DNA from: a phage
Sequence record: PX915677.1
Direction: 5' to 3' (one strand)
DNA: 64,000 nt
The stretch's first letter is position 1. Every line of letters begins with the position of its first letter. Position numbers and translations under genes: made by a program. The notes beneath the pieces were generated by a model that was not told the DNA's origin, ran no database searches, and saw only the letters and a list, made by a program, of their open reading frames with translations. Shown here in pieces: positions 1,047 through 35,533 of the stretch.

Positions 1047-1052
1047 AATTAG

Positions 1053-1080
1053 ACCCTGCCTTCGGGCGGGGTTTTTTCGT
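1053..1080 (+). terminator. rho-independent terminator after capsid gene
   Basis: ccctgcc-ttcg-ggcgggg stem (UUCG loop) followed by TTTTTTCGTTTT. Confidence 0.7.
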
Positions 1081-1105: not shown

Positions 1106-1114
1106 TAATGTATA
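1106..1114 (+). promoter_or_regulatory. candidate phage-specific promoter element TAATGTATA
   Basis: 9-mer recurs 34-59 nt upstream of gene starts on the coding strand (1106+, 18161+, 29392-, 35956-). Confidence 0.4.
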
Positions 1115-1147: not shown

Positions 1148-1660
1148 ATGGCAATGCCAGATTTCAGAGGGGCTTTTACATATAACCCAAATACAGGGCA
1201 TCTTTTCTGGTCTATGAGTAACGTATTCAATAAACAGAAAGGGAAACGTGCTGGATGTATTAATAATAAAGGATATCGTGTATTAACCTTCAAGAAGAAA
1301 TCATACCTAGAGCATAAGGTCATAGCTGAACTCTTTCTTCCTAAAGTAGAAGGGAAGGATTATGTCAACCATAAGAATGGAATAAAAGACGATAACAGGA
1401 TTGAGAATCTAGAGTGGTGTACTCAACAAGAAAACTGTACACATGCTTTTGAAACAGGCCTCTCAACACCTAGGAGTCTTGAGGATAACCCTAATTCCAA
1501 ACTCACTAAAGAGCAAGTTCTCTTTTGTTTGGAGAACTACAAACCGAGAGATAGAGAGTTTGGAGCTAGAGCCTTAGCTAGAAAGTTTGGGGTCTCTAAA
1601 AGCACAATATCTCTCATTACTAAAGGCGTAAACTGGAAGGAGGTTTATTATGATGCCTGA
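1148..1660 (+). CDS. HNH homing endonuclease
   Basis: HNH motif ...DYVNHKNGIKDDNRIENLEW...; C-terminal HTH-like region; SD aaggagg; overlaps next gene by 11 nt as expected for an inserted free-standing HEG. Confidence 0.75.
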   Translation: MAMPDFRGAFTYNPNTGHLFWSMSNVFNKQKGKRAGCINNKGYRVLTFKKKSYLEHKVIAELFLPKVEGKDYVNHKNGIKDDNRIENLEWCTQQENCTHAFETGLSTPRSLEDNPNSKLTKEQVLFCLENYKPRDREFGARALARKFGVSKSTISLITKGVNWKEVYYDA

Positions 1661-2399
1661 CGTCCAATACCCCATCAATACCTATGGGTGGCTAAAGAAG
1701 GCCGTGGCCCTCTGGGCAGATAGGGACGATGACGAATTTGTTAATCAAATTCCAAACTTTATTAACTTTGCAGAGAAAGAGATTTATCGTAACTTACGAA
1801 TCCCTCCTCTGGAAAAAGAAGTGTATTTAGATATCAAAGATGGAGTAGCTTATATTCCTCCTGATTACTTAGAAGCTCAATGGATGATGAGAGCCAAAGA
1901 TGGTACAATCTTCCAAGTAACCTCTCCTGAGGAGATTAGCTATCGTAGACAGCATGGAACAATTAATCCATCTCACTGGAATAACCAACCTGTTAACTTT
2001 GCTCGTTTCGGGAGTCGTTTCATTTTCTACCCTAGTATTGAAGCAGATACTCCTGTTTATCCTGATGATGGAAGCCCTTTAATTCCAGCAGAAAACTCAG
2101 TGATTCTTAGCTATTATGCAGACCCACCGGAATTCCACGAAGATACAGATACCAGTGCTATTCTTACTATCGCACCAGAACTTCTTCTGTACTTCACCCT
2201 ACGTCATGCTTGTCTCTTTGTTCAAGATGATAACGGTGTTCAGAAATGGTCAGCATTAGGAAAAGCTATCCTTGATGAAATGGTAGAGCAGAATAAGAAA
2301 CAAGAGTACTCAGGTTCACCTATCGCAATTCCGAATAACATGACTCGGCTTCAGAGCAGCTTGCCTGATATTTATGGTATTCGTACTTCTCGTGTATAA
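1650..2399 (+). CDS. virion structural protein (tail tubular/adaptor-like by position)
   Basis: 249-aa ORF with GGAGG SD immediately after capsid; function inferred only from synteny. Confidence 0.4.
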   Translation: MMPDVQYPINTYGWLKKAVALWADRDDDEFVNQIPNFINFAEKEIYRNLRIPPLEKEVYLDIKDGVAYIPPDYLEAQWMMRAKDGTIFQVTSPEEISYRRQHGTINPSHWNNQPVNFARFGSRFIFYPSIEADTPVYPDDGSPLIPAENSVILSYYADPPEFHEDTDTSAILTIAPELLLYFTLRHACLFVQDDNGVQKWSALGKAILDEMVEQNKKQEYSGSPIAIPNNMTRLQSSLPDIYGIRTSRV

Positions 2400-18160: not shown

Positions 18161-18169
18161 TAATGTATA
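18161..18169 (+). promoter_or_regulatory. candidate phage-specific promoter element TAATGTATA
   Basis: ctaTAATGTATAtag 39 nt upstream of ATG 18208. Confidence 0.4.
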
Positions 18170-18207: not shown

Positions 18208-21200
18208 ATGGCTAACATTAAACCGTGGGAAGAAGCTTCCAAAGCTCCTGCGTATCTGAATGCCTCTCCGGAGCAACAAGCTCAAATGAGAGAACAATAT
18301 AAGGCAGCAGGTGGCTCTATTCCTGAGGAACAACCAGTAGCACAACCACAACAAGAAGAACGTGGTGCTATAGGTGAGTTTGCTCAAGGTGTGTCAAATG
18401 CTCTTCAATCTGGTGGTGCAAATATTGCAGCTAGTGCTGCTAAAGGTATTGGTGGTTTAGTTGAGATTGGTGAGAATCTAGCTGGAGCACAAACTAGTTA
18501 TGGTAAGCGTATCCAAGAGAACTCTCAGAACCTTCTGAAAGAACGTATGGATAAGATTGAGGATGGGATTGGTAAAACTGTCGGTCAGTATGCTGGCGTT
18601 GCTGGTGATATCGGTTTGACAGTTGCTAACCCATTGGCTGCTGCTGCTATCATCGCAGGTCGTGAGACAGGTCGTGCATATGCAGACCAAACCCCTGAAG
18701 AGGGAGAGGATAAGTCTATTCTAGATGCAGCCTTAGTTGGTGGTGCTAACTATGCAGCTCAGAGAATCCTTCCGGGTGCTGTTGGTACAGCTGAGTCCAC
18801 ACTTGGACGTATTGGTCAGAACGTTGCTAGTAACGCAGTGGCTGGTGCTAAAGGTGGTGCTCTTGTGGGTGCTGCTGAAGTTCAGAACAAGTATGGCGAC
18901 GACAACGATCTAGCTAAGACATTGGAAGGTGTTATCGAAGAAGGGGCTATGGGTGCTGCATTTGGTGGCGCAGTTGGTGGGGTTCATGGTTTGATTAGCC
19001 GTCCAGATTCTGCTGTCTTCAAGAACACTCCAGAGTATGCGAAGACTGATATTGCTGCTGATGATGAACTGATTCGTAGTGCTAAGAATATTGATGAACT
19101 GAAAGAAGCTTATTCTAAAGCTGAAACTGCTAATGCTGCTTCTGCTCTGAACCTTCTGGATGAGAATGGATTCCGTATTACAGATGCTGTTGCTGTAGAC
19201 TCCCCTGCTGCTCAGCGTATTCTTAATACTGACCAAGCTCGTGCTGAGAAAGCTGCTTCCGTTCAGAAAGAACATTCCAACATTCCGGGCCTCAACCCTT
19301 TAGCTTCTCCTGCTAAGACTCGTGGTAAAGCATTCGCTGACAACGAGCACAACCAGAAGCAGGCTGTTGCTATGAAGGATGCAATGGCTGATTACACCAA
19401 AGACAATACGAAAGCTCTTACAGATGTTCTAGATAACCTAGACCGTGAATTAACTTCTCTCCGAGCTTCTGGTGATTTTACTGGTAGTCCGATTGATATT
19501 AAGAACCGTACACAAGCCGACCGTGATTTCATTGATGCTTACAAGACTTTCTACAATGAAGCAAATCGATTCAAAGCTCGTGATGGTGAAGACTTTAATA
19601 ACTTTGTAGAGAAAGCTGCTGAACTACAGAAGATGGCTGATAATGTTTCTCCAGAGATGAAGAAAGCTATCGGTGGGTTGAAGAAACTGAAAGGTATGCC
19701 TGAAGGTTTTAATCCTATCCAAGATGCTTACACTCTGAACAATACAGCTAAGTTCATGAGCAATCAAGACCGTGGTTGGACTTCCCTGACTGATGATGGA
19801 TTCCGTGAGGCTTCTTCACCTAGTCTGGTAATGAACACTCTCGGTGCTGCTAAGTATGCTCTGAATCGCTTCTCTTCTCAGCGTGCTCGCTCTCAACGTG
19901 TTAAGCAACAAGAATCTAACAGTGAAGCTATCCGCTCTCTAGCTCGCGGTGATTTGGAAGTTGCTCGTGCTAAGTCTACTGCTGATGAAGCTCGTGCTAA
20001 AATGGAAGAAGAACCAGTTGTTGATGACATTAAATTTAAGACGCAAAATGACGTGGAAACCGAACCGGTTCGGGAGTCTTCTTCTAGTACTGTGACGGAA
20101 GAAAATCTTCCTTCTTCTGCTCCTCAAGAAGCCCCTCTTACAGCTCGTGATTTAGTTGCGCAAAGACGTGCTATCCGTCAGGCTGAACAGCGTCGCGCTG
20201 AAGAAGAGGCATTGGCTGCTCAAGAAGCTCCGGTCGAACAAGCTCCACAGGCTGAACCTCTCCCTGCTCGTAACCCTTTAGAGGAACGTCGTGCAATGGA
20301 ACAGCAACGTGCTCAAGAAGAGGCCGCACAGGCTCCAGAACCAACCGTAGAGGAACCAACAGTCAAAGCTGAGCCATTACCTGCCCGTGCTCCTAAAGCT
20401 CCTAAGGAAGCTGTACAGGACGTTAAACCGGCAAGTGGTGTAGAACGTTTAGCTGCTATGTCTAGTGCTGCTCGTCAGGCTACTAAAGATCGTGCAGAAC
20501 GTTTTGCTCGTTCTCTGTACTCTAAGGCTGCTAAAGCTAAAGCTACTGCTGAAAACTTCTTGGCCTATAAAGGTGATCCTAAGGAACTGATGCGTCGTAT
20601 TCGTCAGGAAGATAATGCTATCAACACTGAACGTCATGAAGAAATGGCTCGTAACCAGCTGGCCTCTCAGCAAGGTATTGCTACTGCTAAGAACAACACT
20701 GTACGAACTAATTTTGCTGAATGGGTTAAAGAACGTGGTCTGCCAGAAGACATTGCTACTAAGGCATTACGTGCTGAAGAGAAAGGTTTAGGTGGGAACG
20801 TAACTAACTTGGATAGTCTGAAACGTCGTGCTGAAAGGTTGTATCAGAAGCAGCGTGAGGATGAGTTTGATAGGCTGTACCAACAGGCTCTAGAAGAGAA
20901 CAAAGCTTTCGATAATAAGAATGCTCCTAAACTGGTTGACCAGAAGAAAGAGCTTCAGTCTGAGATTGATGCTTTGATTGATTCAGAACCTTTACGTCCT
21001 GCTCAGAAAGATGCTATGCGTAAGCTGATGAATGACTTTGTAGATGGGAAGTTTAAATCTTCAGAGAAGGCTGGTAGGGAAGAGGCTTTGGAAGTTGGTC
21101 AGATGAAGGATATTTGGGATGGGTTTATTAACACCTATAACAGAGAAGTGAATGCCTTCAACAAAGCTAACAAGAACTCTCAGTACGAAGCTGCTGCTAA

Positions 21201-22629
21201 GCATTTACAGGCTCGTGAAGAACGTCTTGCTACACTCAGGAAAAAGGCTCAGGCTCGTTCGGATGCTAAAGCTGCTGTTGAGAATGAACGTAAAACTCTA
21301 GAGGCTATTGCAGCTCAGAAGAGTGAGATTGAGAAGATGATGGAAGGTTTACCTAAACCTGTTCGTGAGGCTCAGGAATCTCGTACATTGAAACAGTTGG
21401 CTGCTCACCACGATAAGAACTCTCCAGTTCCTCCAGAGAAGTTCCGTAGTTACATTGAACGTATCCATAACGCCGAGTCAGACTACCTTGATCGTCAGCG
21501 TCGTTTAACTGATGCAGAGGAAGATGCTCGTCAGGCTAAGTGGAACAAGATGTATGAGCAAGCGGAAGAGATGAACCGTAAGTTTGATGTGGACAAGAGA
21601 GTTAAGCGCAGTGAAGAGCTTAAAGCGGCCCAAGAGCGTGAGAATGACCTTATGGCAGTACAACGTCAACGTGATGACATTCATCGCCGCCTGATGCGTA
21701 CTATGGAAGATAAGGGCATATCTAGAGAGGATGCTGAAGCATTTGCTGGTTCCTATATGGATAACCGTTATGCACTTCTTGAGAAGCCTATGACTCCTAC
21801 TGAACATCAGAATGCTCGTTCTCGTATCGAAGCTGATGTTGAGAAGTTTGCTAAGAAGTACGAATCAATGACTCCTATCGAGAAAGAGATTGTTAAGGTT
21901 ACTGGAGATACTGAAGGTAAGCTTGATAACTTGGATGCGGATACTAGGAAGGCTATTGAGGAGGCTCAGAAGGTTGACTCTGATATTAAGAAACTGCAAG
22001 AGGAAGAGTTGGAGATGGAGAAGATTCGTTCTGCTCTGCCTGATGATGAAAGATCTCAAGCAAATTCTGATATCTTGGAAAGCATTAAACAACAGGAAGA
22101 GGTCTTTGCTGATAAAGTAGAGAAAGCTTTCTTGAGTGGGAAGAGCTTGGATGAGTTGGCTAGTGTGGCTGAAGTTTTAGACAGGGTTCATGGTGCAGAT
22201 AAGGCTGGTAACAACCGTCGCTTTGTACGTGCATTGCAGACTGCTGCTAAAAACAAGAAGAAGTATGGTGATAATCCAGTAGCTTGGTTTAGTGCTGATG
22301 ATTACTCTGCCATTGCTAAACTTGGTGCTTCTTCCGCAGGTGGTAACAAATCCAGAGCACTGGAGAAGATCTTTGGTTCTACAGCTGAACAGGCTAAGAG
22401 TAAGTTGCTTGGTAGGGATGATGTAGCGAAGATGAGACGTGTGATTGAAGAGAACCCTGATATCAAGATTCCTTCTTACAAGACAACAAATCGTACTGAG
22501 TACTTGCAGTTCTTGGAGAAGTTTAATGACGAAGGGAAGCCTAAGATTAAACGTGGCTCATTGTCAGAGAAGCTTGAACGCAGTAAGCGTCAATCGAGAC
22601 TCCGTGTAAGAGTTCGACCTAAGGAGTGA
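18208..22629 (+). CDS. large internal virion/ejection protein (1474 aa)
   Basis: ATG 18208 with SD aaaggag (in frame with the listed 18163 start); highly charged Ala/Glu/Lys/Arg-rich coiled-coil; last gene of the structural operon. Confidence 0.5.
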   Translation: MANIKPWEEASKAPAYLNASPEQQAQMREQYKAAGGSIPEEQPVAQPQQEERGAIGEFAQGVSNALQSGGANIAASAAKGIGGLVEIGENLAGAQTSYGKRIQENSQNLLKERMDKIEDGIGKTVGQYAGVAGDIGLTVANPLAAAAIIAGRETGRAYADQTPEEGEDKSILDAALVGGANYAAQRILPGAVGTAESTLGRIGQNVASNAVAGAKGGALVGAAEVQNKYGDDNDLAKTLEGVIEEGAMGAAFGGAVGGVHGLISRPDSAVFKNTPEYAKTDIAADDELIRSAKNIDELKEAYSKAETANAASALNLLDENGFRITDAVAVDSPAAQRILNTDQARAEKAASVQKEHSNIPGLNPLASPAKTRGKAFADNEHNQKQAVAMKDAMADYTKDNTKALTDVLDNLDRELTSLRASGDFTGSPIDIKNRTQADRDFIDAYKTFYNEANRFKARDGEDFNNFVEKAAELQKMADNVSPEMKKAIGGLKKLKGMPEGFNPIQDAYTLNNTAKFMSNQDRGWTSLTDDGFREASSPSLVMNTLGAAKYALNRFSSQRARSQRVKQQESNSEAIRSLARGDLEVARAKSTADEARAKMEEEPVVDDIKFKTQNDVETEPVRESSSSTVTEENLPSSAPQEAPLTARDLVAQRRAIRQAEQRRAEEEALAAQEAPVEQAPQAEPLPARNPLEERRAMEQQRAQEEAAQAPEPTVEEPTVKAEPLPARAPKAPKEAVQDVKPASGVERLAAMSSAARQATKDRAERFARSLYSKAAKAKATAENFLAYKGDPKELMRRIRQEDNAINTERHEEMARNQLASQQGIATAKNNTVRTNFAEWVKERGLPEDIATKALRAEEKGLGGNVTNLDSLKRRAERLYQKQREDEFDRLYQQALEENKAFDNKNAPKLVDQKKELQSEIDALIDSEPLRPAQKDAMRKLMNDFVDGKFKSSEKAGREEALEVGQMKDIWDGFINTYNREVNAFNKANKNSQYEAAAKHLQAREERLATLRKKAQARSDAKAAVENERKTLEAIAAQKSEIEKMMEGLPKPVREAQESRTLKQLAAHHDKNSPVPPEKFRSYIERIHNAESDYLDRQRRLTDAEEDARQAKWNKMYEQAEEMNRKFDVDKRVKRSEELKAAQERENDLMAVQRQRDDIHRRLMRTMEDKGISREDAEAFAGSYMDNRYALLEKPMTPTEHQNARSRIEADVEKFAKKYESMTPIEKEIVKVTGDTEGKLDNLDADTRKAIEEAQKVDSDIKKLQEEELEMEKIRSALPDDERSQANSDILESIKQQEEVFADKVEKAFLSGKSLDELASVAEVLDRVHGADKAGNNRRFVRALQTAAKNKKKYGDNPVAWFSADDYSAIAKLGASSAGGNKSRALEKIFGSTAEQAKSKLLGRDDVAKMRRVIEENPDIKIPSYKTTNRTEYLQFLEKFNDEGKPKIKRGSLSEKLERSKRQSRLRVRVRPKE

Positions 22630-22638
22630 TAAAAGAAA

Positions 22639-22677
22639 AGCCCTCAAGGAGAAATCCAAGAGGGCTTTATTTGTTTC
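22639..22677. terminator. bidirectional terminator-like hairpin at convergence of the two strand blocks
   Basis: agccctc/gagggct 7-bp stem flanked by T-rich runs on both strands (ttatttgtttc on +, cttttctttt on -). Confidence 0.4.
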
Positions 22678-22721
22678 TAAGTTTTAAAAACCATCAAATT
22701 CGTCATACATCCCAATTCTCT

Positions 22722-22814
22722 TCAGAAGTCTGGATGTTCATCTTCAAAGCATCCTGAGATGCCTCCATAGAACCAATCCGATTTACTTCCAAGGATAACA
22801 ACTTCTTCATTCAT
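22722..22814 (-). CDS. hypothetical small protein (30 aa)
   Basis: MNEEVVILGSKSDWFYGG...; strong SD aggaggg 3 nt upstream; not in ORF track (under 60 aa). Confidence 0.25.
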   Translation of the reverse strand: MNEEVVILGSKSDWFYGGISGCFEDEHPDF

Positions 22815-22822
22815 ATACCCTC

Positions 22823-22984
22823 CTAGATTGTGTTTATAAAATTAGTAAGTTTCTCTTCACTTTCATCAAAAGCTTTTCCAGCTGCTTCCATCTCCCAAGT
22901 ATCGGCATTATCAATAAAGCTCTGAGCTTCTAGTAGGTCATGGATTAAGTCGAAGAGCTTGTTTTTATCTGCTTGTGTGATCAT
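22823..22984 (-). CDS. hypothetical small acidic protein (53 aa)
   Basis: MITQADKNKLFDLIHDLLEAQSFIDNADTWEMEAAGKAFDESEEKLTNFINTI; SD aggaa; hand-derived coordinates. Confidence 0.3.
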   Translation of the reverse strand: MITQADKNKLFDLIHDLLEAQSFIDNADTWEMEAAGKAFDESEEKLTNFINTI

Positions 22985-22992
22985 GTCAGTTC

Positions 22993-23220
22993 CTAGATTA
23001 AATCGTAATACTGAATAATGTCAGAGAGTTTGAACTCTCGAATCTCATCTTTCTCTACATCTATCGCTGTCATAATCCAACAAGGTTTGCCACCGTTATG
23101 AAAACGGGAGCTAGCAACGGAGGTTCGGAGTGGAATAACGGACCGGTCAGCAACCTCGCCTCTCCAATTGCGATAGCGAAAGCGAAGCACTTGTTGCGTA
23201 GATTTTTGATCATCACTCAT
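22993..23220 (-). CDS. small WYL-like domain protein
   Basis: FRYRNWRGEVADRSVIPL...GKPCWIMTAIDVEKDEIREFKLSDI resembles WYL-domain signature; start set at internal ATG abutting the HNH stop. Confidence 0.35.
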   Translation of the reverse strand: MSDDQKSTQQVLRFRYRNWRGEVADRSVIPLRTSVASSRFHNGGKPCWIMTAIDVEKDEIREFKLSDIIQYYDLI

Positions 23221-23614
23221 TTCCTTTTTTGAATTGTTTTCTTGCATCATTCTCTTCTTTTGTTTTAATCTTATGACAAGGGTCTTTACACAGAACTTGA
23301 AATCCCTCTTTCTCACACAGAGCACGAGAGATGATTTCATCCCAAGTTGCTTCATGATCTAAGGGAACTATAGGTTCTATGTGGTCAATAGCCATATCCT
23401 TTACAGGGTGGTCAGAACCACACATGGCACACTTAAAGTGCATTGCCAATCTACCTGTCTTTGGATTAATCTTCTGCTCTGTCTTGGCGTCTGCTAGTGC
23501 ATCGAACATGGGCTTCCACTTTCTAGTCAGAGAACGAATCCCTGACTTGATGAAAGAGTTATAACGAGCTTCAGTCCACATTCCACTACAGCGTATCTTC
23601 TCAGACTTCGCCAT
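23213..23614 (-). CDS. HNH endonuclease
   Basis: HFKCAMCGSDHPVKDMAIDHIEPIVPLDHEATWDE...LCKDPCH HNH zinc-finger nuclease motif. Confidence 0.7.
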   Translation of the reverse strand: MAKSEKIRCSGMWTEARYNSFIKSGIRSLTRKWKPMFDALADAKTEQKINPKTGRLAMHFKCAMCGSDHPVKDMAIDHIEPIVPLDHEATWDEIISRALCEKEGFQVLCKDPCHKIKTKEENDARKQFKKGNE

Positions 23615-23780
23615 AATCAGCTTCTTCCCAAACTCGTTTGTTTACACGATGACTTACTTTGCCCTCACGAGGAATACGACCAGTCCGCTGATCAAACAGT
23701 TGGTGCTTAATCTTTTGGTCTTTACGAGATTCACGATTAGAGGAGTTTTCATCATATGAACGATAATCAAATTTACCCAT
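23601..23780 (-). CDS. hypothetical protein (59 aa)
   Basis: MGKFDYRSYDENSSNRESRKDQ...; SD aagga; stop overlaps HNH start; not in ORF track. Confidence 0.35.
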   Translation of the reverse strand: MGKFDYRSYDENSSNRESRKDQKIKHQLFDQRTGRIPREGKVSHRVNKRVWEEADYGEV

Positions 23781-23790
23781 TATAATATCC

Positions 23791-24303
23791 TTATTTTATC
23801 CAGTCTCTTTCTATATAGGAGGTTGTGAGCTTACGTCTCTCTGCTTCAGTGGAGAAGATGACTACTACACTTCCTTTAGTGTTACCACTAACACTTTGCT
23901 GTGTATCTGCTCTTGTGAAACTCACACGACCACCTGTTATGAAAACAATCTCATCAGCATGGTTTATACACTTAGTAAACCACTTAACAGAAGTATCAGC
24001 TGGTAGCAATAAAACTGTACCAACTTTAAGTTTCTTGTTTTTGATTGCCAAGTCAACCCAAGGAGTTATGTCTGAATATGGAGGATTACACCAAGTGTAA
24101 GTGTTTCTGAACTCAGAGAAATCATAGGTTAGAGAATCCATTTCCTCTGTTATATATTTTTCTAGTAGATGATTCTTGTCACTAGATGCTATATCACAGG
24201 AGAATTCAAACCTTGTGTTAAAGAAATCAAACAGCCATTTAGGGGTTTGCCATAAATCTCTAATGTCTTCTGGGGTATTACTAGATCTATAATCTGTTAC
24301 CAT
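23791..24303 (-). CDS. DNA N6-adenine methyltransferase (phage Dam-like)
   Basis: WQTPKWLFDFFNTRFEFSCDIAS and catalytic NPPY motif (TWCNPPYSDITPW). Confidence 0.75.
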   Translation of the reverse strand: MVTDYRSSNTPEDIRDLWQTPKWLFDFFNTRFEFSCDIASSDKNHLLEKYITEEMDSLTYDFSEFRNTYTWCNPPYSDITPWVDLAIKNKKLKVGTVLLLPADTSVKWFTKCINHADEIVFITGGRVSFTRADTQQSVSGNTKGSVVVIFSTEAERRKLTTSYIERDWIK

Positions 24304-25115
24304 TCTCTATCCAACCATGTCCAATCAAATAAATCTTCCGGAGTTTGACCAACAAAGAGCAGCCGAGCATTCTCAAGCATCTTCTCTTCATCTTCAGTAT
24401 CGAACTTCTTATAATATTCCATTCGTACTATATGATACATGGTCCACTTATCTGTAACATCAGCTAGTAATTTAGCTGCTGCCTTCTTCCCTATACCTTG
24501 ACGTCGAAGCTGAAGCTTACCACCCCACATAACCTCTTTACGTTCCCCACATCCGGGGATATTATCCGTACCGTCTCCAATCAACATTTGATAGAAGAAG
24601 TTTTGCCATGAGATTAAATCAGATACGTAGTGAGGGGGAACCTCTTTCTGCCTTTCTCCACAAGCCCAGCGATAATGCCATCCGGGAGTTATCAACAAAT
24701 CCTTGTCTCTAGTACAGATGATAGTATTCTTATCCCTACGTTGTCTTTCAGCTAGTGCATCATCAGCTTCTCTCCCAAAGACCTCAATGTATTCGTACTT
24801 GGCTTTAATGTAATCACCAACGTTTTGCCAGTGAAAAGGTCTTTCTCCGGGAGGTCTGTTTGCCTTGTAATCTTGCTGCTTAGCAACATCAAAACGGAAG
24901 TTACCACCTTCGCTGAAGTAGAACACAACCTTACTGCAACCTGAGCGAGCAATGATTGTATCTATCTTGTACTGAAGTCGTTCAATCATGAAATTGTAAT
25001 CAACTGGAACACGTCCTGTGTCAAGAAAGGGATGCTCCTGAGTAAGAGCACCCACTTCATATCGAAGAACGTCAGCATCCACTATAGCAACTTCAGGGAG
25101 CTTAACTTCTTCCAT
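24297..25115 (-). CDS. 5'-3' exonuclease / flap endonuclease
   Basis: GREADDALA and IGDGTDNIPG motifs of the FEN/Pol I 5' nuclease family; start at MEEVKL with SD aggatga. Confidence 0.7.
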   Translation of the reverse strand: MEEVKLPEVAIVDADVLRYEVGALTQEHPFLDTGRVPVDYNFMIERLQYKIDTIIARSGCSKVVFYFSEGGNFRFDVAKQQDYKANRPPGERPFHWQNVGDYIKAKYEYIEVFGREADDALAERQRRDKNTIICTRDKDLLITPGWHYRWACGERQKEVPPHYVSDLISWQNFFYQMLIGDGTDNIPGCGERKEVMWGGKLQLRRQGIGKKAAAKLLADVTDKWTMYHIVRMEYYKKFDTEDEEKMLENARLLFVGQTPEDLFDWTWLDREW

Positions 25116-25991
25116 AAATATCATCCTGAGCTTGAGCAATAATCCAATCTAGATCTGAGACTGCTGATTCGATGGTTGAGTCATTAAACAGTAGATATGT
25201 TTTTCTCTGTTCGCCTTCAATATATGAACGAGAGTCTCCATCAAAAGAGCAACCATCTCTAAGAACTTGGACAACTTGGACATGGAAATTCTTTTCTAGT
25301 TCTCGTACCTCTGCATCAAAACCTCCGTCAGTAAACACGACAATATCATCCTGACCTAGCCCTTCTTGTTTGATACTTTTTACAGCAAGATTCCCCATAT
25401 GATTGTTGCCAAACATAGGTTTTAAGAAGTCTTCACTTGTAGAAATCATCAAATCTCTTACAGACTTCCCTCCCCATTCTGGTCTAGGTTTTTCTTTCCA
25501 TTCACGATCTTCATAGCGTGCTAGAAAATTTTCTAGAGGTATTCCTAGTGCAGCAGCAGCTACTCTGTACATTGGCTCCTTGAAGGATTTGGTTGAATAT
25601 CCGTGGTGGTATGAATGGGCATTGACCCAAGCATTGGCTATCGTATCTTTACCACAACCCGGAGGCCCATTAAGAATTACTACTAAAGGCTTATAGTGGG
25701 AATCTCCCACCATATTGGTCAGTGTTGGATTGCCTTGAGATTCCATTTCTAATTGCTCCGTGTGGTCATGTGAGTAATCTACTGGAGAAGTTTTGTTACC
25801 AGTAACTTTAGGTAAAATCGCTCTAGTTGTTTCTACGTACCTACCGCCATCAACATTGATTTGAAACTCTACAAGTTCATTCTGTAATTCATACCCTGAT
25901 AAGTTGGATAGCTCCTCCAACTCATCTCTGACGAAATTTAAATGTTTGATTTTAATTGCAAGAGCTTTCTTTAAAGCTTTTACCTCTTCAT

Positions 25992-25995
<4 letters not shown>
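25102..25995 (-). CDS. P-loop kinase (putative dNMP or polynucleotide kinase)
   Basis: Walker A LNGPPGCGKDT; ATG overlaps upstream stop (ATGA coupling). Confidence 0.4.
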
Positions 25996-27487
<1,492 letters not shown>

Positions 27488-27488
<1 letters not shown>

Positions 27489-27787
27489 TATTCTATTCCA
27501 CGCTCTTTAAGAGCTTCTAACAATCCGTTGTGATTAGCAGCACATTCTGTGTACTGGTCCTGATACCACTCCAACGTAGTGGCTAGTGCTTTTCCTTGAG
27601 CACTCTCTAAAAGAGGTAGGTCAACCCTACATTCAGCTTTTAGGTTTGTTGGTAAGGGCATTGATTGCCTGCTGTTGTCGCTCGTTGAACAAGCTGATAA
27701 ACTAAAAGCTAGCAAAATCCCCGTACAACTCAATAGCTTTTTCTTTATATGCACACCTAGCTCCTTCCAGTGTATCATGAAAACCAA
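27488..27787 (-). CDS. lipoprotein (o-spanin candidate)
   Basis: Signal peptide KKKLLSCTGILLAFSLSAC with lipobox LSAC; short Cys/Pro-containing mature part. Confidence 0.4.
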
Positions 27788-28160
27788 GCCAAATAACCTT
27801 ATCCTCGAATCCTATTCGAGCAGTCCATTTGTTAACATCCTTCCTATACCCGACACCTTTTATGCCTGTTATAGAATTCTTCTGAGCAGATGTATTCATC
27901 TGATTCTGCGCATTGGTTGCTTTTCTTAGGTTAGTCCAAGAGTTGTTAGATTTAATCTGATCTTTGTGGTCAATATCAGTATCAGGGATTTCCCCTGTTT
28001 TTAAATACCAAGCCACTCTGTGCGCTTTATGCGCTTTTCCATTAAATCTAATAATAATGTATCCAGCATCTATCAAACAACCGGCTTCTTTTCCAGCAAA
28101 CCTAGAGTTCCATTGATTGCTCTTCTTTTCAGAGCTTCTCCATGTTAGCTTTCCTGACAC
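27702..28160 (-). CDS. HNH homing endonuclease with AP2-type DNA-binding domain
   Basis: HRVAWYLKTGEIPDTDIDHKDQIKSNNSWTNLR HNH_3-like motif plus GVGYRKDVNKWTARIGFEDKVIWLGFHDTLEGARCAYKEKA AP2-like domain. Confidence 0.7.
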   Translation of the reverse strand: MSGKLTWRSSEKKSNQWNSRFAGKEAGCLIDAGYIIIRFNGKAHKAHRVAWYLKTGEIPDTDIDHKDQIKSNNSWTNLRKATNAQNQMNTSAQKNSITGIKGVGYRKDVNKWTARIGFEDKVIWLGFHDTLEGARCAYKEKAIELYGDFASF

Positions 28161-28183
28161 TTCATCATAGGATAAAAACTCTT

Positions 28184-28528
28184 CTATTCCTTCGATTTTA
28201 AAACCCTCTCAGCTTCTTTCTGTCTCTGGTTAAATAGAGAGACATACTCATCACTAGCGCAGACATTATAAAAAACTGGTTTAGTTTTCTCATAATGCAT
28301 CTCTTTATAAATGGTTTCCGTGTTCTTCTTCCAGTTAGATAAACCGGTAAGAACCCTCTGAGCAACTTCATCAGCTGCTCTATTTCTTTCAATCTCTAAC
28401 TCTTGTTGATGTTTCTCTTTGTCCAGATTACTGCTGTCTGTTTGATATTCGTTAAACTTCATACCACCAAAGAATACAAGAGCTGAGAAAACGATAAACC
28501 CTAAGTTATCACTTAATGTGTTTTGCAT
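28184..28528 (-). CDS. membrane-anchored coiled-coil protein (i-spanin candidate)
   Basis: N-terminal TM LGFIVFSALVFFGG then charged helical domain; start moved to ATG 28528 because the listed start lies inside the upstream terminator. Confidence 0.35.
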   Translation of the reverse strand: MQNTLSDNLGFIVFSALVFFGGMKFNEYQTDSSNLDKEKHQQELEIERNRAADEVAQRVLTGLSNWKKNTETIYKEMHYEKTKPVFYNVCASDEYVSLFNQRQKEAERVLKSKE

Positions 28529-28540
28529 GTTGTCTCCAAC

Positions 28541-28564
28541 GAAAAAAGCCACCCGGAGGTGGCT
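28541..28564 (-). terminator. rho-independent terminator (minus strand)
   Basis: agccacc-loop-ggtggct stem with U-tract on the minus strand (A6 on plus 28541-46). Confidence 0.6.
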
Positions 28565-28585
28565 AAGCTATAACAAGGAGAGTTA

Positions 28586-29332
28586 TTAGAATGGGCTATC
28601 GTTGTCGTCTTCGTAAGTAGAAGCAGGCTCTTTATCAATCGTAGGGATTGAAGGAGTAGCTTCTTTCTGCTCTGTTTCAGAAGCACGAGTAATTTCACGA
28701 CCAGCCAGAGGCATGTTCTTAGCGTCATTAGCTTGAGTAAGCAGGTTGCGCTGGAACGGGAACATCAGTTGATAGGATGCTACGTTCTCATCGGTTTCCG
28801 CATACGGTTCGAAGAATACCAGAGGACTACGAGCTTCACCAACTGCTGCACGATATTTGGTTGGGATTGGAGAAATGGTCTTGATGGAGTTTTTAACTTC
28901 ACCAGCTTTGTTAGTGTAAGAGTTAACCAGAATGTTAACAGGCTGACCTAACAGAACATCCTTGAACCAAGACAGATCACCTTTCAGTGCTTGAATGCTT
29001 GGGTCAATCATCTTGCAAAGATCAAGAATACCAGAGTTCTTAGCTCGTGGGTTTACATCATAGCTCTTGAACTGGCAAGCCGGACGTGGTTCTAATGCCT
29101 TACCATCGGAATCTTTACCAGTAGCATCAACACCAATCAGCTCGAAAGCCAAATCCATACGGAAAGCCGGATTCTTAGGAGTTACTGCTTTGGTCTTCGG
29201 GTCAATCCAAGGGTCACGATTGTGAACACCCAAACCTACTACACGAACGATACGAGCTTCGTATTCACCATCAGGGATTACATCGTAGTTGGATTTACGA
29301 GAAGAAGTTGCGATAGTTGGAATCATAGACAT
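28586..29332 (-). CDS. putative ssDNA-binding protein
   Basis: 248 aa with acidic C-terminal tail ...YEDDNDSPF ending in Phe as in SSB/gp2.5-type proteins; promoter motif upstream and terminator downstream. Confidence 0.45.
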   Translation of the reverse strand: MSMIPTIATSSRKSNYDVIPDGEYEARIVRVVGLGVHNRDPWIDPKTKAVTPKNPAFRMDLAFELIGVDATGKDSDGKALEPRPACQFKSYDVNPRAKNSGILDLCKMIDPSIQALKGDLSWFKDVLLGQPVNILVNSYTNKAGEVKNSIKTISPIPTKYRAAVGEARSPLVFFEPYAETDENVASYQLMFPFQRNLLTQANDAKNMPLAGREITRASETEQKEATPSIPTIDKEPASTYEDDNDSPF

Positions 29333-29391
29333 ATTTTAATTTCCTTATTTAATTTGAAAGATTGTTGCTCTCTTTGAGCGGTTATGTATAG

Positions 29392-29400
29392 TATACATTA
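29392..29400 (-). promoter_or_regulatory. candidate phage-specific promoter element TAATGTATA (minus strand)
   Basis: 59 nt upstream of SSB-like gene start 29332. Confidence 0.4.
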
Positions 29401-29463
29401 CGCTTATACCGATAAGAGTACTATATAATATAAGTATCTTTGGTAGTAGATATAACACACTAA

Positions 29464-29472
29464 TAATGTATA
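29464..29472 (+). promoter_or_regulatory. candidate promoter element TAATGTATA (plus strand, orphan)
   Basis: Same 9-mer on the opposite strand inside the 415-bp ORF-free region 29333-29748. Confidence 0.25.
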
Positions 29473-29748
29473 TATTGTATAGCTGATAAAGTTATTGCAG
29501 GCTTGTATATTGGGCAATTCACAGAATCCCTTGCAAGTACCGAAGGGCAGGAGCCACCTGCGAGATAAAAATAGAGAATTAAGGAATCCTTGATTTAGGT
29601 TGTAGGGACTCCTAGGGACTTTGATTCTCTATTTAAAAGAATATTAATTACTTATTACCTAAATAATTAACTAACTTACTTAAACCAAATTCAAGAATAA
29701 TAGATAAAAAGATTATTCCTAAGAAAGCTAAAAAGTAAAGGATATAAG

Positions 29749-29913
29749 TTACCATTCAAGTAAACCTTTAAAGTTAGATTGTTCTACTATCCTCTGATAA
29801 CGAAGATTAGAGTCAGCTTGTTTCTTTAACATCTCATTATATTTATCTCTGATAGAGTCTTTATATACTACAGGTTCTTTAAATAACGAGATCTTGTTCT
29901 TTTCTTCTTTCAT
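29749..29913 (-). CDS. hypothetical small protein
   Basis: Internal ATG of listed ORF 29749..29997, chosen to limit overlap with the phosphoesterase gene. Confidence 0.2.
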   Translation of the reverse strand: MKEEKNKISLFKEPVVYKDSIRDKYNEMLKKQADSNLRYQRIVEQSNFKGLLEW

Positions 29914-30382
29914 CGAAAACCTTCCTAATCTCTTGCAGAGAAACAGCTTTATAATTAATTTGCTCCATTGATGTACAGAAATATCTCCAATCATCAATTA
30001 CATGATTATGGGTATGAGCATAAATATTAAACCTTCCTCTCATTTCATCAGCGTGGATAGGAATATGAGTTACCCAAAACTCTTTATATTTATAATCACC
30101 AGAGATTCTACGGAAGACTTTCATCATATCAGGGAGAAGTTCTAACCTGTCATGGTTTCCTAAGACTAGATGCTTCTCTCCTTTTACTTCAGCGATGATA
30201 TCAAGGGCATACTTTTCAAACACCCAATCACCGGTAAAGAAGATTTTATCTCGCTTAGTTACATGATCAAATGCAGCTAGGATTGCTTTGTCATGTTCTT
30301 CGATGGTTTTAAATTGCTTACGAAAACTACAGATGTTGCGATGACCTAAGTGACCATCTCCTGCAAAATAAACTTCAGCCAT
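29879..30382 (-). CDS. calcineurin-like metallophosphoesterase
   Basis: GDGHLGH, GDWVF, GNHD and HTHNH motifs. Confidence 0.6.
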   Translation of the reverse strand: MAEVYFAGDGHLGHRNICSFRKQFKTIEEHDKAILAAFDHVTKRDKIFFTGDWVFEKYALDIIAEVKGEKHLVLGNHDRLELLPDMMKVFRRISGDYKYKEFWVTHIPIHADEMRGRFNIYAHTHNHVIDDWRYFCTSMEQINYKAVSLQEIRKVFDERRKEQDLVI

Positions 30383-30391
30383 AAAGACCTC

Positions 30392-30607
30392 TTAGATAGT
30401 GCACCCATCGCAAGTTAAATCACCTAGAAGGGATAGAGAAAGTAATCTGGATTGCTCATCACTATATAATTGATCAATCTCTTCTTTAAGTTTTGCCAAC
30501 TCTATGAAATTGATAAGTTGACCATGTTCAAGACAGTCTGTTTTTAGTATAAATAAAACTTCAGCGTCTGTTGAATCTTCACTTGAATATTTATCAATGT
30601 ATTCCAT
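30392..30607 (-). CDS. hypothetical small acidic protein
   Basis: 71 aa, about 22 percent Asp/Glu. Confidence 0.35.
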   Translation of the reverse strand: MEYIDKYSSEDSTDAEVLFILKTDCLEHGQLINFIELAKLKEEIDQLYSDEQSRLLSLSLLGDLTCDGCTI

Positions 30608-30609
30608 TT

Positions 30610-30831
30610 TTATGCCACATCTCCTTGTTTGTTGTTAATAACATCCAGTGCTGTATAAGCTTTACCTGTTCCTAAGTATTCCAAAACTGGAGGACTCTTC
30701 TTTTCTTCAGCGACTACATAAGGTGTGATCTTCCCTTTCAGTACAGCCTGAGATGCTTTAGCACTGTCTTCAGAGGTATGAATAGTGGTAAGCTCTTTCT
30801 TTCCAATCTTATAAGTGTGAATCCAAATCAT
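30610..30831 (-). CDS. hypothetical protein
   Basis: 73-aa ORF in tightly packed operon. Confidence 0.35.
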   Translation of the reverse strand: MIWIHTYKIGKKELTTIHTSEDSAKASQAVLKGKITPYVVAEEKKSPPVLEYLGTGKAYTALDVINNKQGDVA

Positions 30832-30995
30832 ACTTCTTCCTTATATTCCCAATTTCTTTCATAATACCCAGAGTTGTAGTTTAGGGCGCACTTCTCGGCC
30901 TCTTCTATATCATCAGTGTTTAGAATATTCACCCATCCTCCGGCTTCATCAAAACCTTCTTCTTCCTCATTAATCCATACACTATATTTCTTCAT
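30828..30995 (-). CDS. hypothetical small acidic protein
   Basis: Start at MKKYSVW (ATGA overlap with upstream stop). Confidence 0.3.
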   Translation of the reverse strand: MKKYSVWINEEEEGFDEAGGWVNILNTDDIEEAEKCALNYNSGYYERNWEYKEEV

Positions 30996-31168
30996 CGAGA
31001 AGTTCTTCCCCAATCTTTTACATAGCATCGACCGTTAACCCACTTTGTCTCTGACTTAAATTCCTGAGACAATCTCACCTCACAGTCTTCTCTACTGGCA
31101 TCTCCTCCGATATCAATCAGATACAGGAATAGAGCTATACCTAAAGCCCAAAGAATTATCTTCTTCAT
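30992..31168 (-). CDS. small membrane protein (58 aa)
   Basis: MKKIILWALGIALFLYLIDIGG... N-terminal TM; ATGA coupling to upstream gene; not in ORF track. Confidence 0.35.
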   Translation of the reverse strand: MKKIILWALGIALFLYLIDIGGDASREDCEVRLSQEFKSETKWVNGRCYVKDWGRTSR

Positions 31169-31557
31169 CGAATCACCAAAGGCTCTTCAGAGTACACAGG
31201 AGCGGCTATTTCTACAGGAGGTGCTGCCCTAAGGTCATTAAGTCTTACGCCCTTCAGCATGCCGTCTAGGTGGTCCTTTTTGGGGATTCCAACAGGGAAG
31301 TCGTCAATCCAGATATCGACGAAGAAACCTAGCTGTCGACAGACCTCATCCTTCTGCACACCATTACAAAAGATAATAGGAATCTGCAAACACTCTGCAT
31401 CAATCTTAATGTCGTGGTTATCGTACCCATTAGGCTCTGCAAAGCGATAAGTTACAAAGCGTACATCGTAGCCCTTTTCTTGCATTAATGCCACCACAGA
31501 GCGCCACAGCTTTTTATCTGAGGTGTAAGTGTCATCGTAATCTAAACCAATATTCAT
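31165..31557 (-). CDS. HAD-superfamily phosphatase (5'-nucleotidase-like)
   Basis: N-terminal DxDxT motif in MNIGLDYDDTYT; start at ATG 31557 with SD aagga. Confidence 0.4.
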   Translation of the reverse strand: MNIGLDYDDTYTSDKKLWRSVVALMQEKGYDVRFVTYRFAEPNGYDNHDIKIDAECLQIPIIFCNGVQKDEVCRQLGFFVDIWIDDFPVGIPKKDHLDGMLKGVRLNDLRAAPPVEIAAPVYSEEPLVIR

Positions 31558-31573
31558 GTCAAATCCTTTAGAC

Positions 31574-31596
31574 AAGAAAAGCCGCCCGAAGGCAGC
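31574..31596 (-). terminator. rho-independent terminator (minus strand)
   Basis: gctgcc-uucg-ggcggc stem (G-U pair valid only on minus strand) followed by UUUUCUUGU. Confidence 0.55.
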
Positions 31597-31603
31597 TTCT
31601 TAT

Positions 31604-31780
31604 TTAACTGTTCACTTTAGCTTCAAGTGTTTCGTTTTCAATACTCAAGTCAATCACTACACCAGTAAGCTCAACGACTGCTTGGCGAAGGGCATCTTTA
31701 CCCATAGAGTGTACTTGAGATAAGAAGAAAGCTTTACCTTCTTCAGTGGATAGGGTTTCTTTTAATTCAGAAGCAGTCAT
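31604..31780 (-). CDS. hypothetical small protein (58 aa)
   Basis: MTASELKETLSTEEGKAFFLSQVHSMGKDALRQAVVELTG...; SD aggaa; terminator immediately downstream. Confidence 0.4.
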   Translation of the reverse strand: MTASELKETLSTEEGKAFFLSQVHSMGKDALRQAVVELTGVVIDLSIENETLEAKVNS

Positions 31781-31789
31781 TGATATTCC

Positions 31790-31957
31790 TTATGTTATGT
31801 TATAAATTCGCATGATTGTACCACCATTGGCTTCAATAGCAGCAACCATTTGGTTTCGTTCTTCATCCGTGTAAACTAACACACTTCTAAACTCGCCTGT
31901 TGCATCAGTATAAAGGATGTTATATTTTGGAGGCGGTTTACGGTAAATACCTTCCAT
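31790..31957 (-). CDS. hypothetical protein
   Basis: Start at MEGIYRKPP, overlapping upstream stop (TGATG). Confidence 0.3.
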   Translation of the reverse strand: MEGIYRKPPPKYNILYTDATGEFRSVLVYTDEERNQMVAAIEANGGTIMRIYNIT

Positions 31958-32085
31958 CACTCTTTCTCCTCTCGTTCTTTCCACAGTTCGGCTAGCTCTA
32001 GATAGAACTCAGCCTCATCAAGACGACCTTGTTCATTACAGATGGCGCTCTGACGATAACACCAATCCGATGGCATCTCTTCCAC
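31957..32085 (-). CDS. hypothetical small protein (42 aa, GTG start)
   Basis: SD aaggag 6 nt before GTG; MEEMPSDWCYRQSAICNEQG... Confidence 0.25.
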   Translation of the reverse strand: MEEMPSDWCYRQSAICNEQGRLDEAEFYLELAELWKEREEKE

Positions 32086-32140
32086 TTCAATCTCCTTGTT
32101 ACGAACCAATCAATAAGAATAGTTCATTCGTCTTATTTAT

Positions 32141-32335
32141 TCACTCTACCAATGCAGGTACTTCTATCCTTTTAACTGTGAATGTCTTGTTTGGAAACTT
32201 TCGAACTAGCTCTGCTGCTTTGGTTATTGCTAAGTTCTCTGTCTCAAAGATACACAGTTGACCATTTAATGCTACGAGAGTGGAGCCACCACTGAAGACG
32301 GCCCAAGATTCATAATAACCACGAACACTCATCAC
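32141..32335 (-). CDS. hypothetical protein
   Basis: 64-aa ORF abutting downstream of 32332..32700. Confidence 0.35.
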   Translation of the reverse strand: MMSVRGYYESWAVFSGGSTLVALNGQLCIFETENLAITKAAELVRKFPNKTFTVKRIEVPALVE

Positions 32336-32700
32336 TCAACCTCAATATTATATAGAGTTTTCAGTGTATCTTTAATCCAAGCACGTCGTTTTGGATTCTT
32401 ATGATGTGCCCCGTTTTCCCTATCTCTAAAATATTGATCACATCCGAATGGGTATGTTGGGTCAAAAAACTTTTCTTGATTAAACATATTCTTCATGTCG
32501 TCAATATCTAAATGCTTTGTGAAATAGTAATACCTCTTATAACAGCGAAAGTTGAAGCATAATCCTTGATCTTCACTAAACCATTTTGGATAAATTCCAG
32601 TCTTAGCTATTTCATAATATTGGAGGAGGAAATCCTCCATCCCCCTCTCTTTAGCTAAACATCTCAATGTTCTGTAGATGATATTGGTTTCTTTCATCAC
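32332..32700 (-). CDS. hypothetical protein
   Basis: 122-aa ORF immediately downstream of the polymerase gene. Confidence 0.4.
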   Translation of the reverse strand: MMKETNIIYRTLRCLAKERGMEDFLLQYYEIAKTGIYPKWFSEDQGLCFNFRCYKRYYYFTKHLDIDDMKNMFNQEKFFDPTYPFGCDQYFRDRENGAHHKNPKRRAWIKDTLKTLYNIEVE

Positions 32701-32705
32701 TCACC

Positions 32706-34550
32706 TTAGTGTGTATGCATCCAGTTAAGTCCAATCTGACAATCAGATGCCAGAGGACATTCCATATTCAGATACTCGCCAGCTTTCTTAACACAAAGCT
32801 CGGTGTGCTCTTTGAGTTTCTGTACATCATTACGGTTTACTGAGAATTGACCTTCATCGTGCATATCAATTACCTTAGCACAACGAACCTTATCTTTCTC
32901 AATCCACTTGTTAAGGAACATCATAGCATATTTCATAACAACAGCACCAGCACATTGCAGGAGTGTGTTAAGGGCTTTATGAACCATAACCTTACCAGTG
33001 GCATCCCGTCTCATTGTAATCTTACGACCATCAACTCCAATCAAGTATCCTTGAGCAGCTTTCTCTGTCATACGATCAATGAGGATTGCAATACATGGGT
33101 TCTCTGCTAAGAAACGTGCTCGCATCACTGAACCTTCGTCAGCCCCACCACCTACAATTGAACCAAGCTTAGCATCACCAGCACCATAGTTGAATGCGTA
33201 GATAAACGTCTTAGCGTTGTCACGAGTAGGAAGACCAGCAAGTTTCTGGTTGTGGGAGTGGATATCACCTTCAAGGAGAATATCACGATACATAATAGCA
33301 GAAGCTAAACCACGTTCTGCCAGAGCTTTCTTAGCTGGGTTGTTCTCTTCAATTGCCTCAGCAAGCATATCCCTACACTCTTTAATGAGGTAGTGAGCGA
33401 GCATACGAAGTTCAAGTCCAGAACCATCATACCCTAAGAATACTTCTTTACCAGCGGGTATGTAATATTTGTAAGCACCTATAGGTTTATCTTTCTTCCC
33501 CGGCTTACCTTTCTCGTAAATTACGTTAGTACCTTTTCGTATATAACAACCATCAGGAACAACGTTAGTAATAACGAAAGGACGAGAGTGATCACTGTCT
33601 GAGTTATAGTCAGACTCAAACAAACTGCGACACTCGTGACCAAACAGACCACGGGAGGGAATATTAACCACGATACGATGTTTGAATCGAAAAGTCGGCG
33701 TAGCGCAGCTGTTAGCTTCTGCCGAAAGTTTACCATCTTCGCGTTCCTTTGCTATGAGTCCACTGATAAGACCTAGCCTGTGAGCCGCTACAACGCGTCT
33801 CTTAAGCAAACTTCCGACACTCCCTAGCTCACCCCCTAACCCTTCTTCAAGAGTCTCCTCGAGGTTTGTAGGAGCTGTAGGCCACTTGTTTGATGTGGCT
33901 AGTGCTTTCTTAATCTCATCAAACGTTACAGGATTACGGCGATTAGGGTTCAACCCCAAACCAAATACGTAAGCCTTCATGTAATTCTTAGTCTTAAACC
34001 TGAAATGCTTTTCTAAGAACTTCTTAATATCAGCGTCAACCATCTCGGCTGTCTGCTTCTGCTTAGCATTGCCTCGCATCCAAGCAGTATACCATGCTTG
34101 GTATGTTCCATACTTTCTCATATCTTTCTTAATTTCGAAAGTATTCCAAGGCTTCTTAGATACGTTAAACTCTGGAGGAAGGAAGCCCTCATCCATAAGA
34201 GCTTCTTTAACTCGTGCATCTTTAGATGGGTCAAAGTCTACATATTCGACACAGGTGAAAGCTCCACCAATATCTTCTCTCTTCAGCCCAACCCTATCAC
34301 AATAGGCTTGAGGCCACTTCTGTAAAGCTCCAGACTTCTTAAACGGCTTCATATAAGTAGAGCCATCTAATCTCATCTTAGGTAAGAGAGGAATCAACTC
34401 TCTGTCAATATTAACAATAATCTCTTTAAGGAGGTGAACATACCACCGAGCATTTCTTCGGTTGAAACTCACTCCGTGCTTTGCTTGCTTAGAGATTATA
34501 TCAGCGACAGTCATCTCTGTCAAAAATGGAAGAGCGTCCGGGTTGCTCAC
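32706..34550 (-). CDS. DNA polymerase, family A, polymerase domain only (no 3'-5' exonuclease domain)
   Basis: Motif A DGSGLELRMLAHY, motif B RDNAKTFIYAFNYGAG, motif C VIDMHDEGQF. Confidence 0.85.
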   Translation of the reverse strand: MSNPDALPFLTEMTVADIISKQAKHGVSFNRRNARWYVHLLKEIIVNIDRELIPLLPKMRLDGSTYMKPFKKSGALQKWPQAYCDRVGLKREDIGGAFTCVEYVDFDPSKDARVKEALMDEGFLPPEFNVSKKPWNTFEIKKDMRKYGTYQAWYTAWMRGNAKQKQTAEMVDADIKKFLEKHFRFKTKNYMKAYVFGLGLNPNRRNPVTFDEIKKALATSNKWPTAPTNLEETLEEGLGGELGSVGSLLKRRVVAAHRLGLISGLIAKEREDGKLSAEANSCATPTFRFKHRIVVNIPSRGLFGHECRSLFESDYNSDSDHSRPFVITNVVPDGCYIRKGTNVIYEKGKPGKKDKPIGAYKYYIPAGKEVFLGYDGSGLELRMLAHYLIKECRDMLAEAIEENNPAKKALAERGLASAIMYRDILLEGDIHSHNQKLAGLPTRDNAKTFIYAFNYGAGDAKLGSIVGGGADEGSVMRARFLAENPCIAILIDRMTEKAAQGYLIGVDGRKITMRRDATGKVMVHKALNTLLQCAGAVVMKYAMMFLNKWIEKDKVRCAKVIDMHDEGQFSVNRNDVQKLKEHTELCVKKAGEYLNMECPLASDCQIGLNWMHTH

Positions 34551-34566
34551 TTTATACTCCTTTAAA

Positions 34567-34989: not shown

Positions 34990-34992
34990 AAC

Positions 34993-35277: not shown

Positions 35278-35278
35278 A

Positions 35279-35533
35279 TTAAACTCCTTTAGGGAATGGG
35301 ATGAGATTTTCTACTGCAACACGGAAAGATTTTTCTACGTTCTTATTCTTATAAGAAATGAATTTACCATCAGCACCACGAAGGATTACATTAGTGCGAG
35401 CTGTTTTTGGGTTAATCCCAATCATCCGTTCGATGATCTTGTTTGATTTGTTGTGGTGGTTAGTGAAAGTCCACTTAACAATCTTGCCATCTCTGGTTAC
35501 ATCAAAAATATTTACGATTTTTACAATAGACAT
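35279..35533 (-). CDS. hypothetical protein, tandem paralog 2
   Basis: See 34993..35277. Confidence 0.45.
   Translation of the reverse strand: MSIVKIVNIFDVTRDGKIVKWTFTNHHNKSNKIIERMIGINPKTARTNVILRGADGKFISYKNKNVEKSFRVAVENLIPFPKGV

Follow-up and report, generated by a model that had tools for sequence, protein, structure and literature searches.

The nonanucleotide TAATGTATA, which recurs upstream of genes of this phage, is the already published promoter element of phiEco32-type phages and belongs to the known class of promoters served by the phage sigma factor gp36. In promoters that Escherichia coli core RNA polymerase uses together with gp36, it almost certainly forms the -10-like core, from -15 to -7. 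The analysed window, the whole stretch of 64,000 nucleotides of record PX915677.1, carries orthologues of the phiEco32 promoters P13, P26, P40, P58 and P68. The sole part not described in the publications consulted is an additional plus-strand site, here termed X+. It appears to be a seventh promoter that the published lists lack; it faces a conserved stretch of non-coding DNA and probably drives a non-coding RNA. For annotation, the analysis places five gp36 promoters with their predicted starts, corrects two temporal classes and adds P68. The features are collected in Table 1.

Table 1. Promoters, upstream blocks, genes and RNA features located in the window. Starts are predicted.
Feature	Position	Strand	Details
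Terminator-like hairpin	1051-1074	+	followed by a T-run; 3' of the gp12 homologue, just upstream of P13
TAAGACCTA block of P13	1083-1091	+	-38 to -30
P13 orthologue, late	1106-1114	+	TAATGTATA at -15 to -7; start ~1121 (G); flanks match phiEco32 9101(+)
TAAGACCTA block of P26	18138-18146	+	-38 to -30, spacing as in P13
P26 orthologue, late	18161-18169	+	TAATGTATA; start ~18176 (G); 1473-aa gp26 homologue 18208-22629
Sigma factor gene	26381-27025	-	214/214 residues identical to phiEco32 gp36 (PDB 9m7y chain F, E = 1e-145)
P40 orthologue, middle	29392-29400	-	TAATGTATA; start ~29385 (A); gp40 homologue 28586-29332
TGGTAGTAGATA, -35-like block of X+	29441-29452	+	-38 to -27, includes -37G and -34A
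X+	29464-29472	+	additional TAATGTATA, directed away from P40; start 29479 (A)
Putative conserved structured non-coding RNA	29479-29640	+	~150-160 nt; variable middle module, nearly invariant 3' part
Hairpin 1 (ATAGCT-GATAA-AGTTAT)	29479-29495	+	6 bp; its first base is the predicted +1 of X+
Long stem	29569-29634		in the 3' part; TTTTT after it on the minus strand
P58 orthologue, middle	35956-35964	-	TAATGTATA; start ~35949 (A); gp58 homologue 35602-35919
P68 orthologue, middle	40572-40580	-	AAATGTATA; start ~40565 (A); gp68 homologue 40203-40532
TGGTAGTAGATA, -35-like block of P68	40592-40603	-	
gp79 co-activator homologue	46506-46754	-	81/82 identical to phi32_79

Phage identity and transcription factors

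A megablast search with window positions 20000-36500 matched more than 250 phage records, with the Kuravirus phages of Escherichia 95-98% identical and phiEco32 96% identical. By these matches, the window is that of a phiEco32-like Kuravirus. The preliminary description had located a sigma factor gene at 26381..27028; the gene is confirmed and its product equals gp36, but the 214-aa protein begins at 27025, one ATG downstream of 27028. Since the two proteins are identical over their whole length, every DNA-contacting residue named in the structural study of gp36 (PMC12276001) is identical too. The co-activator gp79, whose homologue is also encoded here, was reported to block sigma-70 transcription and to stimulate gp36 transcription 3- to 4-fold at P26 and P68 (PMC12276001). 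The window further contains a tRNA-Arg (anticodon TCT) at 59488-59563(-), as in phiEco32.

Orthologues of the published gp36 promoters

The gp36 holoenzyme recognizes six promoters upstream of phiEco32 middle and late genes, namely P6, P13, P26, P40, P58 and P68, which share one common consensus, tAATGTAtA, with transcription starting 6-8 bp downstream (PMC8948821). Table S3 of that study gives TAATGTAgA for P6, TAATGTATA for P13, P26, P40 and P58, and aAATGTATA for P68, and lists an identical promoter set for five related phages (PMC8948821). The same consensus appears in PMC4331800 and PMC4281155; the primary source on these promoters, Pavlova et al. 2012, is represented here through PMC8948821, PMC4331800, PMC4281155 and PMC12276001. 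The cryo-EM structure solved for promoter P68 in complex with E. coli RNA polymerase, gp36 and gp79 shows the N-terminal domain of gp36 reading -14A, -13A, -12T and -11G, the bubble opening from -11, and the C-terminal domain touching -37G and the T opposite -34A; mutation of the contacted bases or residues cripples transcription, and both P26 and P68 are transcribed in vitro by the gp36 holoenzyme (PMC12276001).

The alignment of flanking regions assigns the window sites one-to-one to phiEco32 P13, P26, P40, P58 and P68, and the homologues of genes 13, 26, 40, 58 and 68 each have the orthologous promoter upstream in matching orientation. The window contains no P6, which lies outside it. With the motif taken as -15 to -7, the base seven positions past it is a purine at all six sites. 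The preliminary description had suggested the 9-mer as a possible promoter element for the phage's own sigma factor, and had pointed to a similar consensus in phiEco32-type phages. The gp36-identical sigma factor, the published tAATGTAtA and the P13, P26, P40 and P58 orthologues bear out the suggestion, and the phiEco32-type consensus is that of the literature (PMC8948821, PMC4331800, PMC4281155, PMC12276001). Since these four sites equal published gp36 promoters, the interpretation is supported, and the element itself is not new. The earlier assignment of the sites to late genes holds for P13 and P26, whereas P40 and P58 belong with the middle promoters; likewise, all five exact copies on the earlier list are present, but a sixth site was missed, the P68 variant AAATGTATA, 39 nt upstream of the start codon at 40532.

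The gp36 dependence, start sites and temporal classes given here are carried over from the phiEco32 experiments by analogy between near-identical promoters. On this analogy, the N-terminal domain of gp36 would recognize -14A, -13A, -12T and -11G and the DNA would melt from -11, with the C-terminal domain contacting the -35 region (-37 and -34) and transcription starting 6-8 bp past the motif, while gp79 would turn off sigma-70 transcription and stabilize the gp36 open complex.

The first gene after P13 in this genome is an insert encoding an HNH homing endonuclease (1148-1660(+), 170 aa, PHROG 59), not a structural gene, and it lies between P13 and the gp13 virion-protein homologue. The insertion follows codon 5 of gp13 and took the ribosome-binding site and the first five codons (MAMPD); the gp13 homologue restarts at 1650 (1650-2399(+)) as MMPDVQYPI. 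The same insert is present in IME267 and MLP3, and phiEco32 is without it.

The P40 motif is situated within a near-palindrome, TAATGTATAcTATACATAA (window 29382-29400; TTATGTATA on the opposite strand), and 5-nt inverted copies of the motif core are found 9-11 nt downstream of P13 and P26. The inverted core repeat is clear at P40 alone (7 nt, P = 0.005) and marginal at P13 and P26 (P ~0.09); none was found downstream of the other promoters.

Number and placement of the 9-mer

The identical 9-mer had been described at four gene starts, 34-59 nt upstream of them, together with an extra copy at 29464. All five copies are exact, and the measured gaps are 33, 38, 59 and 36 nt to the starts at 1148, 18208, 29332 and 35919, respectively. 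At 18161 the motif apparently overlaps an open reading frame because the ORF finder uses an ATG within the motif itself; the start at 18208 is backed by homology to phiEco32 gp26, with an equal offset of 47 nt. A count against shuffled expectation had been proposed as a check, with random occurrence inside coding regions as the outcome that would speak against a promoter role. The expected number of exact copies is 0.67, none of 100 dinucleotide-preserving shuffles reached five, and all five copies are intergenic in a window that is about 10% non-coding (greedy gene map, ~90% coding), with those upstream of genes oriented toward them. One-mismatch variants of TAATGTATA are not enriched in the window (18 vs 18.9 expected), and the majority of them are within genes. 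Because of coding repeats, 776 other 9-mers of the window, strands counted separately, also reach at least five copies, and the copy number of TAATGTATA is therefore unremarkable by itself. The weight of the argument lies in the intergenic, gene-oriented placement and in orthology, not in copy number.

In the whole phiEco32 genome exact TAATGTATA is found at P13, P26, P40, P58 and the additional site, and nowhere else. ECBP2 (NC_018859.1, locus L169) has a further exact copy, without a phiEco32 counterpart, at 75692(-), where a large early region between genes 0118 and 0119 is non-coding. The most frequent 9-mers of the window come from an 18-bp tandem repeat, AATGCCATCTTTACCATC, present in ~11 copies at 63807-63994; it encodes (DGKDGI)n in a minus-strand ORF, 63734-63994, which runs past the window end.

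Upstream blocks of the promoters

All sites of the window, like those of phiEco32, have A at position -34. The TAAGACCTA block shared by P13 and P26 is retained in ECBP2 despite different farther flanks, and TTGGTAGTAGATAT, occupying -39 to -26 of P68, is conserved in five genomes. Upstream of P58 no conserved block was found, and the sequence there differs from that of phiEco32. From these few promoter classes we infer that the -35 blocks fit the -35 contact of the 2025 structure better than the older 'single-element' description.

A further stretch, 27092-27109(-), is located in the gp37 homologue, ~65 nt before the sigma gene begins. Here TAAGACCTA directly adjoins TAATGTTTA, which differs from the motif at one position and overlaps a perfect TATAAT; this spacing is unlike that at P13 and P26. 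The literature places the sigma-70 promoter of the sigma gene near these positions; a simple sigma-70 scan found none upstream of the gene.

X+, a candidate seventh gp36 promoter

The copy at 29464 had been mentioned merely as an extra one. Its presence is confirmed and, being conserved and preceded by a -35-like block of its own, it is more than noise. The phiEco32 genome also has X+, at 36704(+). The site is absent from the six gp36 promoters listed in PMC8948821 (Table S3) and PMC4331800, later accounts through which the 2012 primary mapping is known second-hand.

X+ and P68 share the identical 14-nt TTGGTAGTAGATAT at -39 to -26, and within the window the 12-mer TGGTAGTAGATA is confined to these two sites, with one copy at each in the same register. 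Thus, besides the consensus element, X+ matches both bases contacted in P68, -37G and -34A. The back-to-back pair of P40 and X+ was found in 17 of 17 fetched relatives from Kuravirus, Suseptimavirus and Nieuwekanaalvirus, and persists even with 120 bp inserted between the two sites. In INPHARED, 99 records contain this intergenic region. Among 16 unique relatives, the invariant columns comprise 10 of 12 in the -39 to -28 block, none of 12 in the spacer, all nine in the 9-mer and 1 of 26 farther upstream; read from the alignment, this pattern is a bipartite promoter footprint. The exact 9-mer of X+ is present in 22 of 23 relatives. In L170, one of six metagenomic contigs, the site reads TAATATATA, a G-to-A change at the contacted -11 base, and X+ is therefore not indispensable. 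Unlike the other gp36 promoters, X+ has no co-oriented middle or late gene downstream and points against a minus-strand cluster.

Both the footprint and the region that follows suggest a more specific reading, to which we would give an even chance: X+ could be a P68-type gp36 promoter (TTGGTAGTAGATAT-N10-TAATGTATA) making a conserved structured non-coding RNA of ~160-190 nt from ~29479. As part of this evenly weighted proposal, the RNA of all three genera would start with the covarying hairpin, continue through a middle module that can be exchanged and end in a 3' domain that hardly varies. Candidate roles for such a transcript are a regulatory RNA, an antisense RNA or a replication-priming transcript.

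The conserved stretch downstream of X+

No credible plus-strand ORF was found downstream of X+, and indels of 1 and 2 bases among the relatives exclude coding on both strands. The putative RNA would begin with hairpin 1. Across ten distinct variants 98% of the cells of this hairpin are paired; compensatory changes occur at two of its six pairs, one changing from U-A to G-C and the other from C-G to U-A or A-U, and one pair alternates between G-C and G-U. None of 500 shuffles and none of the slid controls reached the covariation score of this hairpin. The G-U pairs, four of which were counted, become A-C mismatches if read on the minus strand. Hairpin 1 is followed by the middle module, which has two unrelated versions, short and long. 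The last ~100 nt (29542-29640) are 84-96% identical even in comparison with ECBP2, with neighbouring segments replaced or absent. Outside hairpin 1 covariation is uninformative because the sequence is nearly invariant among the relatives. The predicted folding energy is -45.8 kcal/mol for the plus strand (z = -2.1) vs -35.3 kcal/mol for the minus strand (z = -1.4), and the versions with the long module fold well too (z = -3.0 and -1.9).

By analogy with the hairpin before P13, the long stem may also end leftward transcription before P40. No canonical plus-strand terminator was found after the conserved stretch. An Rfam search of 29300-29800 with E up to 10 yielded chance-level hits only (E >= 2.7, far below gathering scores), and a literature search for non-coding RNA of phiEco32 or Kuravirus returned nothing relevant.

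The long stem contains a direct repeat, TAGGGACT-CC-TAGGGACT, around a CCTAGG palindrome (29603-29620(+)); several relatives have lost one G in parallel from both copies (AGGACT-CCT-AGGACT). A 35-aa hydrophobic ORF (MVTYILYFLAFLGIIFLSIILEFGLSKLVNYLGNK; 29648-29755(-)), homologous to phi32_41, is found in some relatives only and is missing in ECBP2, Bas86, Bas88, Paul, XT32 and EK010.

Alternative explanations

Two alternatives concern the 9-mer as such. Its recurrence could be due to chance or to the composition of an A/T-rich genome, as the unenriched one-mismatch variants and the many other 9-mers with five copies might suggest, but no shuffled sequence reached its count, every copy falls in the non-coding tenth of the window, and across genera the 9-mer stays the same next to bases that vary. 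Together with the published biochemistry, these observations leave a chance origin a negligible probability, and the conservation data and the literature already refute it. Slightly less remote, yet still very improbable, is the explanation that the sites are A/T-rich, TATA-containing promoters of the host sigma-70 and not of the phage sigma factor. The TGTATA and TATA of the motif loosely resemble a -10 hexamer, and weak sigma-70-like matches overlap X+, though no more than in shuffled sequences: the P40/X+ region has four against 4.1 expected. A simple sigma-70 scan around P13 was empty, and the gp36 holoenzyme recognizes these sequences base-specifically, with gp79 shutting off sigma-70 (PMC8948821, PMC12276001).

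For X+ the competing explanation is more serious, although we consider it rather unlikely. X+ might be no independent promoter: it could have arisen by duplication of the P68 promoter region and persist as a relic, or gp36 could bind there as at a decoy or upstream site that modulates the divergent P40. In that case the conserved sequence downstream would act on the minus strand, terminating transcription past gene 41 or past the phosphoesterase gene. The long stem with its minus-strand TTTTT does recall the terminator-then-promoter layout upstream of P13; moreover, the critical -11G is lost in one relative (L170), the published lists do not include X+, and the plus strand offers neither an ORF nor a terminator. 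A relic, however, would hardly keep the -35 block and the 9-mer constant around a spacer that is free to vary, a pattern that indicates selection on a working promoter, and the TGGTAGTAGATA block lies exactly where gp36 contacts P68. A purely minus-strand role also fits poorly with hairpin 1, which starts at the predicted +1, covaries and has G-U pairs that suit the plus strand only, and with the better folding of that strand; in addition, ~90 conserved nucleotides between X+ and the stem would be downstream of any minus-strand terminator. We therefore favour X+ as a probable gp36 promoter of a non-coding RNA. If this is true, phiEco32-like phages make an unnoticed gp36-dependent non-coding RNA in a model system; and if X+ fires, the block it shares with P68 would support the claim that gp36 promoters are not strictly single-element.

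Comparison with known systems

Phages encode small RNAs and promoter-proximal structured transcripts, and T7-type origins lie just downstream of phage promoters. The putative X+ RNA differs from known phage small RNAs in matching no Rfam family and in being predicted from sequence; it resembles them, and T7-type origins, in that it would be short, structured and non-coding and would come from a phage-specific promoter located between genes and beside an A/T-rich stretch.

In three more distant IMG/VR contigs (L007-L009; 82-90 kb, gp40 homologue 67-70% identical), no TAATGTATA was found upstream of the gp40 homologue. These contigs share a different conserved block there, ggaagcatctagcaaagctagcatatcaaagctaagctaagctatatgctttatccatt, possibly another promoter type. 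An IMG/VR scan with the pattern GGTAGTA-N16-AATGTATA matched more than 100 unrelated contigs, and its result was discarded because the pattern lacked specificity.

Phage 7-11 has late promoters dependent on its sigma factor gp47, with the consensus GTAAtg-(16)-aCTA (PMC8948821). As in the window, a phage sigma factor of the same group directs the host core polymerase to few conserved promoters at equivalent genome positions, and these promoters are bipartite, as is the sub-type represented by P68 and X+. The differences are the other consensus, a sigma factor only ~15% identical and the lack of a gp79 homologue (PMC8948821).

The closest system is phiEco32 itself. The window differs from it in the HNH endonuclease gene that comes first after P13 and in the sequence upstream of P58. 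The sigma factor is identical, gp79 is present, the flanks are almost identical, and the same 9-mer, including the A-for-T at P68, is found at the same positions with the same downstream genes.
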